Of a stretch of 30,305 nucleotides of DNA, positions 25,084 to 30,305 are shown piece by piece. The stretch is from the NCBI GenBank assembly GCA_017483405.1, contig JAFUWP010000033.1, forward strand, positions 1-30,305, given 5' to 3'. Position numbers and translations under genes: made by a program. This DNA comes from Oscillospiraceae bacterium (GTDB lineage Bacteria; Bacillota; Clostridia; Oscillospirales; Ruminococcaceae). Position 1 is the first letter of the stretch, and each line of letters opens with the position of its first letter. The notes under the pieces are model-generated. The model made no database searches and had not been told where the DNA came from. It saw only the letters and a program-made list of their open reading frames with translations.

Positions 25084-25944
25084 TCAGCCTTCGAGCTTTT
25101 TCAGTTCTTTTTCTTCTTTGGAAACCTTTGGTTTTCCGGCTTTTAAGATTTCCACTTCGGAACGGTCTACCGTATACGGCACATCATCAGGGTTTTCCGG
25201 CCGGATGCGCAGTTTTCCGGTTATCAGATTGGCATCCTCGACACGACCCTTTCCGTGTGATGTCTTGACAAACGAACCGATGCGCGGTGTAATCTTCTGT
25301 AAATCTTCATAGGCCTCCTGTTCGTGCTTGAGACAGCACATCAGACGGCCGCATGTGCCGGAAATCTTTGTCGGATTCAGAGACAAGCCCTGTTCCTTCG
25401 CCATCTTGATAGATACCGGCTGAAAATCTCCCAGATACCCCCGACAACAGAATTCCCGTCCGCAGACTCCCAGTCCGCCGAACATTTTTGCTTCATCGCG
25501 GACTCCTATCTGACGGAGTTCAATCCGCATCCGGAATACAGAGGCTAAATCTTTTACCAGTTCACGGAAATCCACACGGTTATCAGATGTAAAATAAAAT
25601 AATAATTTACTGTTATCGAATGCACAGCTGACATCGACAAGCTTCATCTTGAGCTTGTGGGATGCGATTTTCTGTTCGCAGACCGTGAAAGCCTTTTTTT
25701 CTTTCTGCTTATTCTGCTCCAGAGTCCGGAAATCTTCCTGATTCATTATCCGGAGCACGTTCCGCAGGGGAGCGGTAACGGCTTCATCCTGCACATTCCG
25801 GTTCGGAATCGAAACAATCCCGCATTCCGTGCCTTTTGCCGTTTCGACTACGACTTTATCTCCCATCTGAAGACGGAGGCCGGCCGGTGAAAAATAATAG
25901 ACTTTTCCGGAGTTCTGAAAACGAATTCCTACAATTTCAGTCAT
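25084..25944 (-). CDS. ricT: PSP1-domain protein RicT/YaaT
   Basis: EIVGIRF...GKVYYF, FYFTSDNRVDFRELVKDLA, RIELRQIGVRDEAK..GG.G.CGR..CC, ISG.CGRLMCCLK.E. Confidence 0.95.
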   Translation of the reverse strand: MTEIVGIRFQNSGKVYYFSPAGLRLQMGDKVVVETAKGTECGIVSIPNRNVQDEAVTAPLRNVLRIMNQEDFRTLEQNKQKEKKAFTVCEQKIASHKLKMKLVDVSCAFDNSKLLFYFTSDNRVDFRELVKDLASVFRMRIELRQIGVRDEAKMFGGLGVCGREFCCRGYLGDFQPVSIKMAKEQGLSLNPTKISGTCGRLMCCLKHEQEAYEDLQKITPRIGSFVKTSHGKGRVEDANLITGKLRIRPENPDDVPYTVDRSEVEILKAGKPKVSKEEKELKKLEG

Positions 25945-25965
25945 AAATACATAATCCTTTCTCAA

Positions 25966-26943
25966 CTAGTTCAGAAGCAGATTTCCGCCAAGCGCAGATA
26001 ATACCAGTTTCAGGCTGACACTTGCCTGTGATGCCTCATAAGCTGACTGTACTGCCTGACAAAGCCGTTCCGCACGGGATGCCGTCAGCATTCCTGAAAG
26101 CAGTTCCGCAGACTGCCGGTCACATCCGGTCAGAATATCATCTCTGTATTTCAGCGTACAGGCATCGCGAAACTGCAAAAGCAGTAACTGCAACAGCTTT
26201 TCCGCCTGTACACGGTCTTTTTCATAGCCTGACAGAATTCTTAAAATTTCATATTGTCTTCTCTGTGCGACAGCGAATGTCAGTTCCGATGCGTGACGGG
26301 TCATCTCCTGCATGGAAGTATCTTCCAGCCATCGGAGCGCAAGGCCGATATTTCTGCCTCCTGTCGATTTGATTGCCCTTCCGGCATCTTCCGGCGTACA
26401 GTCATGCTGTTCTGTCAGGGCGCGGAAACAGTCTTCCGGCGTACACGGCCGGATGGCTATCTGCATCATTCGGGAAAGCATCGTTTCCAGAAACGCGCTT
26501 TTCGATACTGCGGTGAATAATAACAAAACATGTTCCGGCGGTTCTTCCGTCAGTTTCAGAAGTGTGTTCTGTGCCGGAATCCCGATATTATCACAATCCG
26601 CAAATAAATAAATCTTCCTGTCGCTGTCATTCGGGGCAACTATGGCATCACGGCAGATTTCCCTGACCGTTTCGACCGAAAAACCCTGTTTTTTGCCGGA
26701 ATGTTCCACAGGAATCAAATCCGGATGGACTCCGTGCAGAATCTTCTGACAGTTCCGGCACGTTCCGCAGGGGGCATCTTCTCCCGTGCATAACACCGTC
26801 ATAGCGAAATATTCCGCGAGCGTTTTCCGTCCCGAACCCTTTTCCCCATAAAACAGACACGCATGGGGAATGTGTCCGTTCTGATGCATTTTCCGCATCA
26901 GATGCAGATTTTCATCATTGCCATAAATGTTCAGACTGCTCAT
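25966..26943 (-). CDS. holB: DNA polymerase III subunit delta'
   Basis: HACLFYGEKGSGRKT, PCGTCRNC zinc motif, HPD, AQNTLLKLTEEPP, L.T..SR. Confidence 0.9.
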   Translation of the reverse strand: MSSLNIYGNDENLHLMRKMHQNGHIPHACLFYGEKGSGRKTLAEYFAMTVLCTGEDAPCGTCRNCQKILHGVHPDLIPVEHSGKKQGFSVETVREICRDAIVAPNDSDRKIYLFADCDNIGIPAQNTLLKLTEEPPEHVLLLFTAVSKSAFLETMLSRMMQIAIRPCTPEDCFRALTEQHDCTPEDAGRAIKSTGGRNIGLALRWLEDTSMQEMTRHASELTFAVAQRRQYEILRILSGYEKDRVQAEKLLQLLLLQFRDACTLKYRDDILTGCDRQSAELLSGMLTASRAERLCQAVQSAYEASQASVSLKLVLSALGGNLLLN

Positions 26944-27257
26944 AATTTTTCAAATCGTTCGACATCCGTCACGAATACCGTTGCACCGCCGACTTCGACT
27001 TCTACCGGCAGTTCGATTCCGGAATTGATGGGCGTACTGTTCGGAACAGTTTTCTTCCGCTTATGGCTTTTTTCACGGATGACGCTGATTAATTCTTCCA
27101 GACGGTCTTCCTCCACGCAGGTCAGAAATGTTGTATTTCCTGCACTCAGGAATCCGCCTGTTGATGCGAGTTTTGTCGCGTAAAATCCGGCATTCAGAAG
27201 TGCTTTTCCGACTGCCTGACTGTCATCACTGTTGACGATGGCAAATACCAGTTTCAT
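26940..27257 (-). CDS. darA: c-di-AMP receptor DarA/PstA (PII-like, YaaQ)
   Basis: MKLVFAIVNSDD, ATKLASTGGFL.AGNTTFL, VEVGGATVFV; upstream of holB. Confidence 0.92.
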   Translation of the reverse strand: MKLVFAIVNSDDSQAVGKALLNAGFYATKLASTGGFLSAGNTTFLTCVEEDRLEELISVIREKSHKRKKTVPNSTPINSGIELPVEVEVGGATVFVTDVERFEKL

Positions 27258-27293
27258 AAATTTAAAAATCCCCTTTCGAGAGTGTCTGTTTCC

Positions 27294-27322
27294 AGTATAG
27301 CATATTTTCAGAAAAAATGCAA
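27294..27322 (-). promoter_or_regulatory. sigmaA promoter for darA-holB-ricT
   Basis: Minus strand TTGCAT-17 nt-TATACT with TGc extension; the -35 overlaps the upstream terminator. Confidence 0.65.
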
Positions 27323-27342
27323 GTCTGTATCACAGACTTGCA
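27312..27342 (-). terminator. Terminator after mccA
   Basis: TGCAAGTCTGT-(3 nt)-ACAGACTTGCA followed by T6 on the minus strand. Confidence 0.75.
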
Positions 27343-27354
27343 AAATTTATCCTG

Positions 27355-28266
27355 TTATTGATATAATCCGGCACTGAAATATCTGTCTCCGCGGTCGGGA
27401 AGGACGGTCACGATTCTGCCCTTGCCGACTTTTTCAGCAAGCTTTACCGATGCCGATAATGCCGCACCTGAACTCGAACCTGCAAAGATACCTTCACGTT
27501 CGGCAAGCAGGCGGGAATACTGAAACGCTTCCTCATCGTTGATTTTAATGACTTCATCGACAAGATTCATATCCATCGTGGCCGCGATGAAATCATTTCC
27601 GATACCTTCGATATTATAATCATGATGTTCGCCGCCGCCCATTGTTGAGCCATCAGGGTCGGCCAGAATTCCTTTAATATCGGGATTTTTTTCTTTCAGA
27701 TAACGCAGAATTCCGGTGTATGTTCCTCCGCTCCCTGCTCCGGCTACGACATAATCTATCTGACCGTCCAAATCTTCATAGATTTCCTTTCCGGTCGTTT
27801 CGTAATGCGCCAGCGGATTGCTTTGATTCTCAAACTGTGCCAGAGAAATCGCATTCGGAATTTCTTTCTTGATTTCTTCCGCCTTGCTGACTGCGCCTAA
27901 CATTCCGAATTCACGGGGGGTATTGATGATTTTCGCCCCCAGTGCCCTGACAAGTGTCTGCTTTTCGATGGAAAATTTATCCGGAATCACAAAAATCACC
28001 TGATACCCTCTGTTCAGTGCCGCGAATGCAATGCCTAATCCCGTATTTCCGGCAGTTGCTTCGACAATGACTCCGCCGGCTTTTAGAAGGCCTTTCCGTT
28101 CGGCATCCTGAATCATATATAAGCCCGTTCTGTCTTTCACACTTCCGGATGGATTGTATAATTCCAGTTTCGCAAATATCTGAATTTCCGGATTCGTCTC
28201 GAAATGATGCAGTCTGACAAGAGGCGTATGGCCGATTAATTCTTGCATAGAATCATAATAATGCAT
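27355..28266 (-). CDS. mccA: O-acetylserine-dependent cystathionine beta-synthase (cysteine synthase family)
   Basis: AKLELYNPSGSVKDR, EATAGNTGLG, KFSIEKQ, VAGAGSGGT, EGIGNDF, GSSSGA. Closely resembles B. subtilis MccA/YrhA as I recall it; adjacent to mccB. Confidence 0.8.
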   Translation of the reverse strand: MHYYDSMQELIGHTPLVRLHHFETNPEIQIFAKLELYNPSGSVKDRTGLYMIQDAERKGLLKAGGVIVEATAGNTGLGIAFAALNRGYQVIFVIPDKFSIEKQTLVRALGAKIINTPREFGMLGAVSKAEEIKKEIPNAISLAQFENQSNPLAHYETTGKEIYEDLDGQIDYVVAGAGSGGTYTGILRYLKEKNPDIKGILADPDGSTMGGGEHHDYNIEGIGNDFIAATMDMNLVDEVIKINDEEAFQYSRLLAEREGIFAGSSSGAALSASVKLAEKVGKGRIVTVLPDRGDRYFSAGLYQ

Positions 28267-28267
28267 C

Positions 28268-29428
28268 TTACTTTACCTCGCTTTTTTCAATTGCCTGCTG
28301 TAAATCTTCCAGAATATCGGCAATATCTTCAATGCCTACTGATAACCGGATTAAGCCGTCTGTAATGCCGACCTGTTTCCGGATTTCTTCCGGAATGGAG
28401 GCATGTGTCATAGTTGCCGGATGGCATACGAGTGATTCGACTCCGCCGAGACTTTCCGCTAACATGATGAGTTTCAGACTCTTGAAGAAGGTTTTAATAT
28501 CATAATTGTCATGCAGTTCAAAAGAAATCATGACACCGCCGTTTTTGGCCTGTTTTTTGTTGATTTCATAACCCTGACCGGATTCCAGTCCGGCATAGTA
28601 CAGATTTCTGACAGCTCGGTGATGCTGAAGGAAATGTACGACTTTTTCAGCATTTTCGACATGTCTGTCCATGCGGACTCCTAATGTCTTGATGCCCCTG
28701 ATTAACAGGAACGAATCGAACGGAGGCAGAACACCGCCTGTCGAATTCTGGATAAAGGCAATCTGTTCGGCGAGTTCCTTTGTCGAAACAACAATCAGTC
28801 CGGAAACGACATCGCTGTGACCGCCGAGATACTTTGTCGCGGAATGTACGACAATATCTGCACCGAGGTCGAGAGGCTTCTGTAAATAGGGGGTCATGAA
28901 GGTGTTATCGACAATCACAAGCAAATCATGCTTATGAGAAATTTCCGAAATTGCCTGAATATCTGTAACTGTCATCAGCGGATTGGCAGGACTTTCAATC
29001 ATAACGGCTTTGACATCGGGGGTAATCTGGGTTTCAAATACTTCCGGATTTGCGGTATCTGCGATAGTATAATTGATATTGAAATGATTGAACACTTTAT
29101 CCAGCACTCTGAATGTACCGCCGTAGACATTGCTGGAAATCAGCACTCTGTCACCGGATTTCAGCAGGCTCAGTACTGCGGTGATGGCCGCCATACCGGA
29201 GGCGAATGCAAATCCTGCATAGCCGTTTTCGAGTTCGGCAATCAGGGCTTCAAGGGCTTCTCTGGTCGGATTGCCTGTTCTGGAATATTCATAGCCGCGC
29301 ATTTCGCCGAGGCCATCCTGTTTATAGGTCGATGTCTGATAAATCGGAATATTGACTGCTCCGGTTCTCTCATCAATAGAAATTCCGCCGTGAATTAATG
29401 CTGTACTGATATTCTTAAACTGACTCAT
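28268..29428 (-). CDS. mccB: Cystathionine gamma-lyase
   Basis: IHGG, GAVNIPIYQTSTY, YEYSRTGNPTR, FASGMAAI, VDNTF.TPY.Q.PL.LGADIVVHSATKY, AESLGGVESL. ATG 29428 after GAAAGGAG. Confidence 0.88.
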   Translation of the reverse strand: MSQFKNISTALIHGGISIDERTGAVNIPIYQTSTYKQDGLGEMRGYEYSRTGNPTREALEALIAELENGYAGFAFASGMAAITAVLSLLKSGDRVLISSNVYGGTFRVLDKVFNHFNINYTIADTANPEVFETQITPDVKAVMIESPANPLMTVTDIQAISEISHKHDLLVIVDNTFMTPYLQKPLDLGADIVVHSATKYLGGHSDVVSGLIVVSTKELAEQIAFIQNSTGGVLPPFDSFLLIRGIKTLGVRMDRHVENAEKVVHFLQHHRAVRNLYYAGLESGQGYEINKKQAKNGGVMISFELHDNYDIKTFFKSLKLIMLAESLGGVESLVCHPATMTHASIPEEIRKQVGITDGLIRLSVGIEDIADILEDLQQAIEKSEVK

Positions 29429-29456
29429 GATAAAAAATCTCCTTTCAAATAAGCAC

Positions 29457-29492
29457 AAAAAACCGGAGAATACAGAAAACTGCATTCTCCGG
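29457..29492 (-). terminator. Leader (attenuator) terminator upstream of mccB
   Basis: Minus strand CCGGAGAATGCAG-TTTT-CTGTATTCTCCGG-TTTTTT: a 13-bp stem whose G-U pair works only on the minus strand. Confidence 0.88.
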
Positions 29493-29536
29493 AAAAATTT
29501 TCAGAATTGTAATTTTATAATAACGATATGATAAAA

Positions 29537-29635
29537 TTACCCTGACACGCGGGAGCTGTTTCTCTGCTTCATAATTATGCAATTATAGTGAGCACAACAG
29601 CAACAACATGCAGTCAGGGTATTCACAGAAAACAT
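29537..29635 (-). CDS. Cys-rich leader peptide MFSVNTLTACCCCCAHYNCIIMKQRNSSRVSG (32 aa)
   Basis: GAAAGGAG RBS 9 nt before ATG 29635; codons TGT TGT TGC TGT TGT at 29608-29594; TAA at 29539-37. Confidence 0.8.
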   Translation of the reverse strand: MFSVNTLTACCCCCAHYNCIIMKQRNSSRVSG

Positions 29636-29696
29636 GAGAAACGACTCCTTTCAGATAAAATCAATAATAATTATATAAGATAACGAACAAACAATA

Positions 29697-30305
29697 TTAT
29701 TCAAACATAGGGGTGGACAGATAACGCTCACCGGTATCCGGCAGAAGTGCGACAATTGTCTTACCCTTGTTTTCCGGACGCTTTGCGAGCTGAATGGCTG
29801 CCCATACGGCCGCACCGGAAGAAATACCTACCAGAACGCCTTCACTTCTGGCGATGAGTCTGCCTGTTTCAAAAGCATCTTCATTTTCAACAGCAATGAC
29901 TTCATCATAAATATCTGTATTCAGTGTTTCCGGAACAAATCCAGCACCGATGCCCTGAATCTTGTGAGGGCCGGAAACGCCTTCACTCAGTACAGGTGAA
30001 CCCTTCGGCTCTACTGCAACAATCTTGACATCCGGATTCTGGGATTTCAGATATGTGCCTACGCCGGTGATAGTTCCGCCTGTGCCGACACCGGATACGA
30101 AAATATCAACTTTGCCATCGGTATCGTTCCAGATTTCCACACCGGTTGTTTTTTCATGTGTGGACGGGTTAGCCGGATTTGTGAACTGGGACGGAATAAA
30201 GCTATCCGGAATTTCTGCGGCAAGTTCCTGTGCCTTTGCGATTGCGCCTTTCATACCCTTTGCGCCTTCTGTCAGTACGATCTCCGCACCATAGGCTTTC
30301 AGGAT
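29697..30305 (-). CDS. cysK: Cysteine synthase A, C-terminal part (5' end outside window)
   Basis: Frame open from the window end: [22 protein letters not shown]..., [39 protein letters not shown]. Confidence 0.95.

Follow-up and report, generated by a model that had tools for sequence, protein, structure and literature searches.

How might a member of the Oscillospiraceae match the expression of its cysteine-forming genes to its supply of cysteine? The question is raised by contig JAFUWP010000033.1 of the Oscillospiraceae bacterium assembly GCA_017483405.1, where genes for O-acetylserine sulfhydrylase (cysK) and for an MccB-MccA pair stand in a row on the minus strand. The window that we analyzed, 30,305 nt in length, is the whole of this contig, which ends inside cysK. 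MccB and MccA make cysteine from homocysteine and methionine. In the Bacillota, control over amino-acid supply is usually credited to T-boxes, riboswitches and repressors, and leader-peptide attenuation is seen chiefly as a device of Proteobacteria and Actinobacteria. Between cysK and mccB, on the same strand, lies a short open reading frame (ORF) that contains a Cys-codon run and precedes an intrinsic terminator. We consider it likely that this leader is a ribosome-mediated (leader-peptide) transcription attenuator that would sense Cys-tRNA and control read-through from cysK into mccB-mccA. It has three of the features that define such a device: a short ORF with a ribosome-binding site (RBS), conserved tandem codons for the cognate amino acid, and a terminator before the first structural gene.

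The leader between cysK and mccB

The leader ORF consists of 32 codons and a TAA stop (29635-29537, minus strand, as are all features of the locus described below) and encodes MFSVNTLTACCCCCAHYNCIIMKQRNSSRVSG. It is preceded, at a distance of 9 nt from its ATG, by the Shine-Dalgarno (SD) sequence GAAAGGAG (29652-29645). Codons 10-14 (TGT TGT TGC TGT TGT, 29608-29594) form the Cys run, which is the proposed sensor, and a sixth Cys codon at position 19 (29581-29579) lies inside a conserved block, AATTGCAT (29584-29577), that we call element 2. The ORF starts 61 nt past the cysK stop codon and ends 108 nt before the mccB ATG at 29428. An intrinsic terminator with 13 perfect pairs, a 4-nt loop and a run of six T follows 44 nt after the stop codon (stem 29492-29463, T6 29462-29457; -21.6 kcal/mol), and its T-run ends 28 nt before the mccB ATG. 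The SD, the ORF and its Cys codons were read and translated directly. They agree with the initial annotation, which had described this minus-strand arrangement of SD, 9-nt spacer, ATG and 32 codons, five tandem Cys codons with a sixth nearby, a terminator ending about 28 nt before mccB, and cysK, mccB and mccA as the flanking genes; for the terminator and the genes, too, its account was borne out.

An element of this kind is not a trivial find in this genome. Defining a Cys-rich short ORF as an ATG ORF of 8-60 codons that contains CCC or CC..CC, we counted 26 on both strands of the 2.23-Mb assembly (4.46 Mb of strand), and the mccB leader is the only one that has an SD together with a strong terminator. 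The fold of the 211-nt leader lies at z = -6.0 relative to shuffled sequences. The leader element is thus more than a product of chance.

Four leaders make up the sequence family in which conservation was judged: that of the window; that of a same-genus genome, 83% identical (G184); that of an Oscillospiraceae rumen metagenome-assembled genome (MAG) whose MccB is 97% identical (L060); and that of a metagenome contig which was found by a motif without the Cys codons (L151). A divergent fifth leader, in Porcipelethomonas (L061), precedes a methyltransferase-mccB operon and keeps Cys at codons 10-12 as well as the helix pattern described below. The SD (identical in G184, L060 and L151), the indel-free frame of 32 codons, Cys at codons 10-14 and 19, and the terminator are kept in all four. 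Across the five sequences 98.5% of terminator cells are paired, with U-A, U-G and C-G variation at one pair. Variable sites in the four leaders are spread over the three codon positions as 10, 9 and 10, with no third-position bias, and the amino acid is altered in 14 of the 16 variable codons, which argues that the peptide itself is not under selection. Conservation resides in nucleotide blocks, namely the Cys run, AATTGCAT, CAGAGAAACAGCT and TCAGGGTAA. A Cys run conserved among variable flanks in orthologous leaders was the check that the initial annotation had put forward, and the outcome was positive.

This sequence family is narrow. A scan of 400 family genomes with the terminator motif recovered G184 only, and a DNA search likewise gave G184 alone. 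A metagenome scan with the conserved 3' motif returned mainly chance matches and two real leaders, of which L151 alone was new. The Cys run itself, searched as TGYTGYTGYTGYTGY (five TGY codons), had matches in 331 of the 400 genomes, mostly in other frames (CTG/GCT repeats); this search was too noisy and was dropped.

The sensors that would be expected in a bacterium of this phylum were not found at the locus. Neither a T-box (RF00230) nor a SAM/S-box element (RF00162) nor any other Rfam family had a match on either strand of 27000-30305, even at E <= 10, and no relevant Rfam family was found in the window, in L060 or L002, or in 40 related loci. Elsewhere the host genome carries four T-boxes (C29:1160-1391, C134:805-1048, C96:546-787 and C288:1302-1523) and one SAM riboswitch (C188:2578-2679). 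Two of the four T-boxes precede genes for class I and class II aminoacyl-tRNA synthetases, and none of the five elements lies near a cysteine gene in the assembled part of the genome, which is 77% complete.

Cys-rich leaders ahead of other mccB operons

We scanned all DNA upstream of mccB (183 kb) in 80 loci encoding MccB relatives that are 64-97% identical. Cys-rich ATG short ORFs number 29 on the mccB strand and one on the opposite strand, and the genome-wide background would predict about one in the DNA scanned. An SD is present in nearly all of the 29, and a hairpin plus T-run in most. Where mccB is the first gene, they stand 100-130 nt before it; elsewhere they lie about 1.0 or 1.5 kb upstream, ahead of the first gene of a methyltransferase-mccB or luxS-mccB operon. 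The encoded peptides fall into families that are unrelated except for Cys: ..CCCCC..RNSSRVSG; MKCMCCCMSYTRAM..CCLN.IRC; MCCCMC..TYAQRCC, a type that includes the isolate Ruminococcus flavefaciens ND2009; and the Fibrobacter type MNMCCCCW. The peptides of the window leader and its close relatives have no Pfam or NCBIfam family match. Unrelated Cys-rich peptides in front of the same gene are what a codon-sensing leader would be expected to show, and not the mark of a protein family. Together with the conserved Cys codons and the empty Rfam search at the locus, this strand enrichment supports the cysteine attenuator that the initial annotation had suggested. Several of the sister families also have an obvious antiterminator, a copy of the terminator 3' arm inside the ORF, directly after the Cys run, whose energy equals that of the terminator, and antiterminators of sister families reach z < -2 relative to shuffles in 8 of 26 leaders.

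Some of these leaders have features of their own. Those of the Ruminococcus type (L064, L065, L066, L068, L073 and L078) have their Cys in two clusters, MCCCMC close to the start and, right before the stop, RCC, the latter following a conserved TYAQ, which suggests a multi-site design. They share a conserved TATGCGCAG that is similar to the terminator 5' arm. Three Fibrobacter MAGs (L099, L104 and L127) and the locus L097 have Cys-rich leaders (MNMCCCCW.. and ..CCWCRCRAGD) and terminators before mccB; in leaders of this type the terminator 3' arm recurs as a copy (GAGCGGG/GAACGGG) within or right after the ORF. Two Ruminococcus MAGs have no Cys leader before mccB (L074:2250-2500 and L076:2250-2500) and carry in its place palindromes (CTGACAACGTTGTCAG / CTGATAACGTTATCAG type) that are repeated, a hint that a protein operator may substitute for the attenuator there. 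MccB relatives of 64-72% identity occur in MAGs of Treponema, Prevotella, Succinivibrionaceae and Methanomethylophilaceae, a distribution that points to a possible horizontal spread of the gene in the rumen.

Leader helices and a possible switch

Besides the terminator, the strongest structural feature of the leader is a long-range helix that we call helix A. Its 5' strand, GGAGTCGTTTCTC (29636-29648, inverted repeat I3), comprises the SD core and the spacer to the ATG; read as 29648-29636 and reaching about +4, it pairs with codons 23-29 (29564-29552). The energy of helix A is -20.1 kcal/mol compared with -10.2 +/- 2.1 in shuffled sequences (z = -4.7; none of 200 shuffles as good). Across the five sequences 92% of its cells are paired, and all changes are pair-compatible, one of them compensatory. 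Such sequestration of the leader's own RBS by a distal segment of the ORF is found at z < -2 in 10 of the 29 leaders. A further hairpin, hairpin C (29509-29540, inverted repeat I1), stands between the stop codon and the terminator. It appears in every fold, and a hairpin occupies the same position in all five relatives, its sequence being different in L060 and L061. Helix A, hairpin C and the terminator are all part of the RNAalifold consensus. Mutually exclusive with helix A is helix B, a perfect 9-nt inverted repeat (I5) between TACCCTGAC in codons 6-8 (29621-29613) and GTCAGGGTA in codons 30 to stop (29546-29538), with an energy of -14.3 kcal/mol; 80% of its cells are paired, and it is lost in L061. 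A hairpin between the Cys run and element 2 (1:2) is weak (-4.6 kcal/mol) and was set aside.

The 3' strand of helix A is of particular interest. This segment, element 3 (CAGAGAAACAGCTCC, codons 24-28, 29552-29566), is near-invariant: CAGAGAAACAGCT is identical in the four relatives, and only its last two bases vary between C and U. Its CUCC complements GGAG at the base of the terminator, and the loop together with the first CUG of the 3' arm is complementary to its CAGAGAA; the pairing amounts to -11.6 kcal/mol. When upstream sequences are ranked as complements of the terminator 5' arm plus loop, element 3 comes first, or within 0.1 kcal/mol of first place, in each of the four close relatives, with energies of -11.2 to -12.0 kcal/mol at the same position, and 95-96% of the cells of this pairing are paired. 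For element 2 a pairing with AUGCAGUU, in the distal 5' arm and the loop of the terminator, is possible (-8.0 kcal/mol, 85% of cells paired). We also folded the leader as it would be during a stall, with RNA 5' of the stalled ribosome masked and the terminator 3' arm not yet made. In this fold, element 3 is predicted to pair with the 5' arm and to enclose hairpin C in the window and L060, and in G184 and L151 element 2 does so instead. On average, the 5' arm is paired upstream with a probability of 0.55-0.69 if the ribosome is stalled and of 0.01-0.32 if it stands at the stop codon. On these models element 3 would be the best candidate for an antiterminator strand here, a candidate and not an established element. 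The motif UUUUCUGU occurs twice in the leader, in codons 2-4 (29633-29622) and across the terminator loop and the start of the 3' arm (29480-29469), and CAGAGAA of element 3 is complementary to each of them.

We propose the following course of events. When Cys-tRNA is ample, the ribosome would reach the stop codon and cover the CUCC end of element 3; once it has left, helix A would re-form and sequester element 3. By either route the terminator could fold and transcription would end at about 29457-29462. When Cys-tRNA is scarce, the ribosome would stall at codons 10-14 or at codon 19, leaving element 3, and possibly element 2, free. Element 3, closed by hairpin C, might then pair with the GGAG base and with the loop and CUG tip of the terminator, and the terminator so clamped would fold late, allowing RNA polymerase to continue into mccB-mccA. 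Without translation, helix A and the terminator would form, which would make off the default state. A Cys-tRNA signal is the expected input because in Clostridium acetobutylicum the switch for the same pathway, ubiG-mccBA, is a Cys-specific T-box (PMC2566862).

The stall would have to be relayed to helix A in some way. In all five sequences, including L061, the Cys run begins nine codons, or about one ribosome footprint, after the ATG. If another ribosome queued up behind the stalled one, it would sit on the RBS and might keep helix A open, which is speculative. That the leader is an intercistronic valve of just this kind, in which ribosome queueing and not the footprint relays the stall and frees the helix A 3' strand to clamp the terminator at base and tip, is possible in our view, and doubtful.

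Several observations weigh against the attenuator. The element 3 duplex does not exceed chance in its energy (z = -0.65; equally good values in 122 of 500 shuffles), the antiterminator has a paired probability of 0.66 compared with 0.43 in shuffles (5 of 30), and neither the element 2 nor the element 3 pairing with the terminator is stronger than chance. RNAalifold run on the truncated alignment returned local hairpins only and no antiterminator. A ribosome at codons 10-14 has a footprint of about +10 to +57 and reaches neither strand of helix A, and the opening of helix A by a stall needs the assumption of a queued ribosome. Helix B has no place in the proposed mechanism. Compensatory changes are few, as only four to five related sequences exist. 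The sequencing runs that match the stretch are DNA runs, with no RNA run among them. Finally, the spacer between cysK and the leader holds no convincing or conserved promoter, only weak -10-like hexamers at non-conserved distances.

Three further lines of analysis were discarded. The stall-versus-stop probabilities do not separate real leaders from shuffles (0.69 and 0.53 on average) and are unusable as evidence. Ribosome-masked constrained minimum-free-energy folds give the terminator in every state if helix A may close round the ribosome, and are uninformative. A pairing of ACUGCAU with AUGCAGU (29614-29608 with 29485-29479) was rejected as an antiterminator, being absent in G184 and L060.

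Where transcription of the leader starts can be judged from relatives with longer contigs. In L060 and G184 cysK follows a promoter of consensus type (TTGACA, 17 nt, TATAAT) and a palindrome that is conserved. Because the relatives have this promoter before cysK and none is conserved between cysK and the leader, the leader is probably not a 5' leader; it would be intercistronic in a cysK-leader-mccB-mccA transcript driven by the cysK promoter. Upstream of cysK in L060:1229-1300 and L002:459-530 the promoter, with a TG, is followed by a conserved block of about 45 nt that contains the palindrome AGATAGGA.ATAAGTACTATCT. This palindrome is probably a repressor operator, perhaps of the CymR/Rrf2 type, that would govern cysK and hence the whole cysK-leader-mccBA transcript.

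The cysK 3' part (29697-30305) matches NCBIfam TIGR01139 with 315.8 bits over model positions 98-298. The mccB-like gene, for a cystathionine gamma-lyase / homocysteine desulfhydrase (28268-29428), scores 567.7 bits with NF005810, for which the cut-off is 594; its own SD (29446-29439) and its ATG were read directly. The mccA-like gene (27355-28266) belongs to the cysK/cysKM family, slightly below cut-off. Its product, of the CysK-family, O-acetylserine-dependent cystathionine beta-synthase type, is 43% identical to that of the upstream cysK, and O-acetylserine lyase and cystathionine beta-synthase are the names of its best solved relatives, which assigns it to the MccA type. A terminator with an 11-bp stem and a T-run (27318-27342) closes the operon 3' of mccA. 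Beyond it, on the same strand, follow darA (for a cyclic di-AMP receptor), holB and ricT (25084-27257), in an order that is kept in L060.

Other readings of the leader are conceivable. The hairpin could be a constitutive partial terminator, an insulator that fixes the ratio of cysK to mccBA expression, with cysteine control left to a repressor at the cysK promoter and the ORF merely incidental. The promoter and palindrome ahead of cysK in relatives would fit such an arrangement, as would the statistically unsupported antiterminator of the window copy. An incidental ORF, however, in which nearly all of the variable codons change the residue would not be expected to retain six Cys codons along with its frame and length, nor to recur as unrelated Cys-rich ORFs before mccB operons, 29 on the gene strand and one on the other; moreover, helix A binds the leader's RBS into the structure. 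We regard the insulator as improbable. Alternatively, the stalled ribosome might act after transcription, on mccB translation or on mRNA stability, as at the polycysteine short ORFs of mycobacteria (10.1101/834739). This idea would be suited by the equilibrium fold, in which the mccB SD has a mean unpaired probability of 0.39 and so is partly paired, but the partner of the SD is weak, local, AU-rich sequence and not the leader. A conserved 13-bp hairpin with T6 between the ORF and mccB is likewise at odds with it, and most related leaders of the other families also have a terminator. An action of this kind is quite improbable.

The ORF might also encode a functional Cys-rich peptide, such as a metal binder, a redox peptide or the precursor of a peptide that is made by the ribosome and then modified (RiPP), of the SCIFF/ranthipeptide type. 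Cys-rich precursor peptides are common in Clostridia, and six Cys in 32 residues would be in keeping with one. Set against this are the missing peptide family match, a neighborhood (cysK, mccB, mccA, darA, holB, ricT) in which there is no maturase gene, residues that show no purifying selection, and peptides in the other mccB leaders that are unrelated save for Cys. We think a peptide product very improbable. Just as improbable is an inverted logic, in which a ribosome at the stop codon masks the hairpin C 5' arm and the freed 3' arm pairs with the terminator 5' arm, so that full translation leads to read-through and stalling to termination. A fold constrained by a ribosome at the stop does predict a weak pairing of the hairpin C 3' arm and spacer with the terminator 5' arm, but this pairing is AU-rich, amounts to about -6 kcal/mol, and is absent in L060, which lacks the spacer. 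To shut a cysteine-producing pathway during cysteine starvation would be physiologically senseless, and in the homologous operon cysteine limitation leads to induction (PMC2566862). The attenuator that is opened by scarce Cys-tRNA is the reading that we retain.

Relation to known cysteine control systems

The classical leader-peptide attenuators are trpL of E. coli, hisL of Salmonella, pheL, thrL, leuL and the ilv leaders. With these the mccB leader shares a short translated ORF, tandem codons for the regulated amino acid, an intrinsic terminator and mutually exclusive helices. Its helix energies (-16 to -20, -11.6 and -21.5 kcal/mol) are similar to those of the trp 1:2, 2:3 and 3:4 helices (about -11, -12 and -20). 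It differs in its amino acid, cysteine, and in its host, a member of the Bacillota, among which T-boxes and riboswitches are the norm. The geometry of its switch is atypical: the loop that separates 'region 1' from 'region 2', and not region 1, contains the control codons, region 1 is the leader's own RBS, the leader sits between cysK and mccB and not at the 5' end, and the antiterminator is weak.

To our knowledge, leader-peptide attenuation for cysteine has been shown experimentally only in mycobacteria, by a translational mechanism. The polycysteine short ORFs concerned, the 'Cys ribulon' of Canestrari et al., belong to the leaderless kind and affect translation (10.1101/834739). Seliverstov et al. 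(2005) described Cys leader peptides of Actinobacteria, and these are without terminators (PMC1262725). In both cases, as would hold for the mccB leader, a run of Cys codons in a tiny ORF upstream of cysteine-metabolism genes reports cysteine supply by ribosome pausing. There is no sequence relationship between them and the mccB leader. Unlike the mycobacterial short ORFs, the latter has a strong SD, a canonical terminator and an mccB SD unpaired with the leader; nor is it leaderless, with an SD before its ATG and its start downstream of the cysK stop. A further parallel is uORFC-8-2, before cysS in the Rhodobacterales, for which Brewer et al. (2021) predicted a Cys-codon upstream ORF, a terminator stem and a U-run and which they read as a ribosome-mediated attenuator (PMC8632094). 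It shares with the mccB leader the Cys-codon upstream ORF and the terminator, and differs in having two Cys codons, an alphaproteobacterial host, cysS as its target and another structure; no Rfam match links it to the mccB leader locus.

In its target, the leader corresponds to the Clostridium ubiG-mccBA operon, which is controlled by a Cys-specific T-box and S-box antisense RNA in C. acetobutylicum (PMC2566862) and C. perfringens (PMC2940859). Both systems concern the same pathway genes, and both would use the same signal, the charging of tRNA-Cys, and transcription antitermination. In Clostridium the sensor is an RNA that binds uncharged tRNA, whereas here a ribosome would read Cys codons, which would make the mccB leader a functional replacement of the Cys T-box and not its homologue. 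What the initial annotation had stated about published systems, among them CymR in B. subtilis, the C. acetobutylicum T-box and S-box and actinobacterial Cys leaders, holds within the literature searched. Cys leader-peptide attenuators of Clostridia or other Bacillota are not described in the full-text literature that we searched, which leaves out most subscription journals, nor does Rfam 15 contain such a family. As far as this search reaches, leader-peptide attenuation as a mechanism is already well known, and its use for cysteine, in the Oscillospiraceae and in an intercistronic setting appears new; an absence of reports is not proof of novelty.

The leader exemplifies a class of unannotated short ORFs that are currently missed by genome annotation and by Rfam. 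Cys-rich leaders before mccB were found in rumen Oscillospiraceae, in Ruminococcus, including a cultured R. flavefaciens strain, in other Clostridia and in Fibrobacter, which suggests that terminator-type cysteine attenuators may be common in gut anaerobes, where they would replace the Cys T-box of the same Clostridium operon. The locus offers a testable sensor of cysteine status in rumen organisms that live on sulfide, cysteine and methionine.

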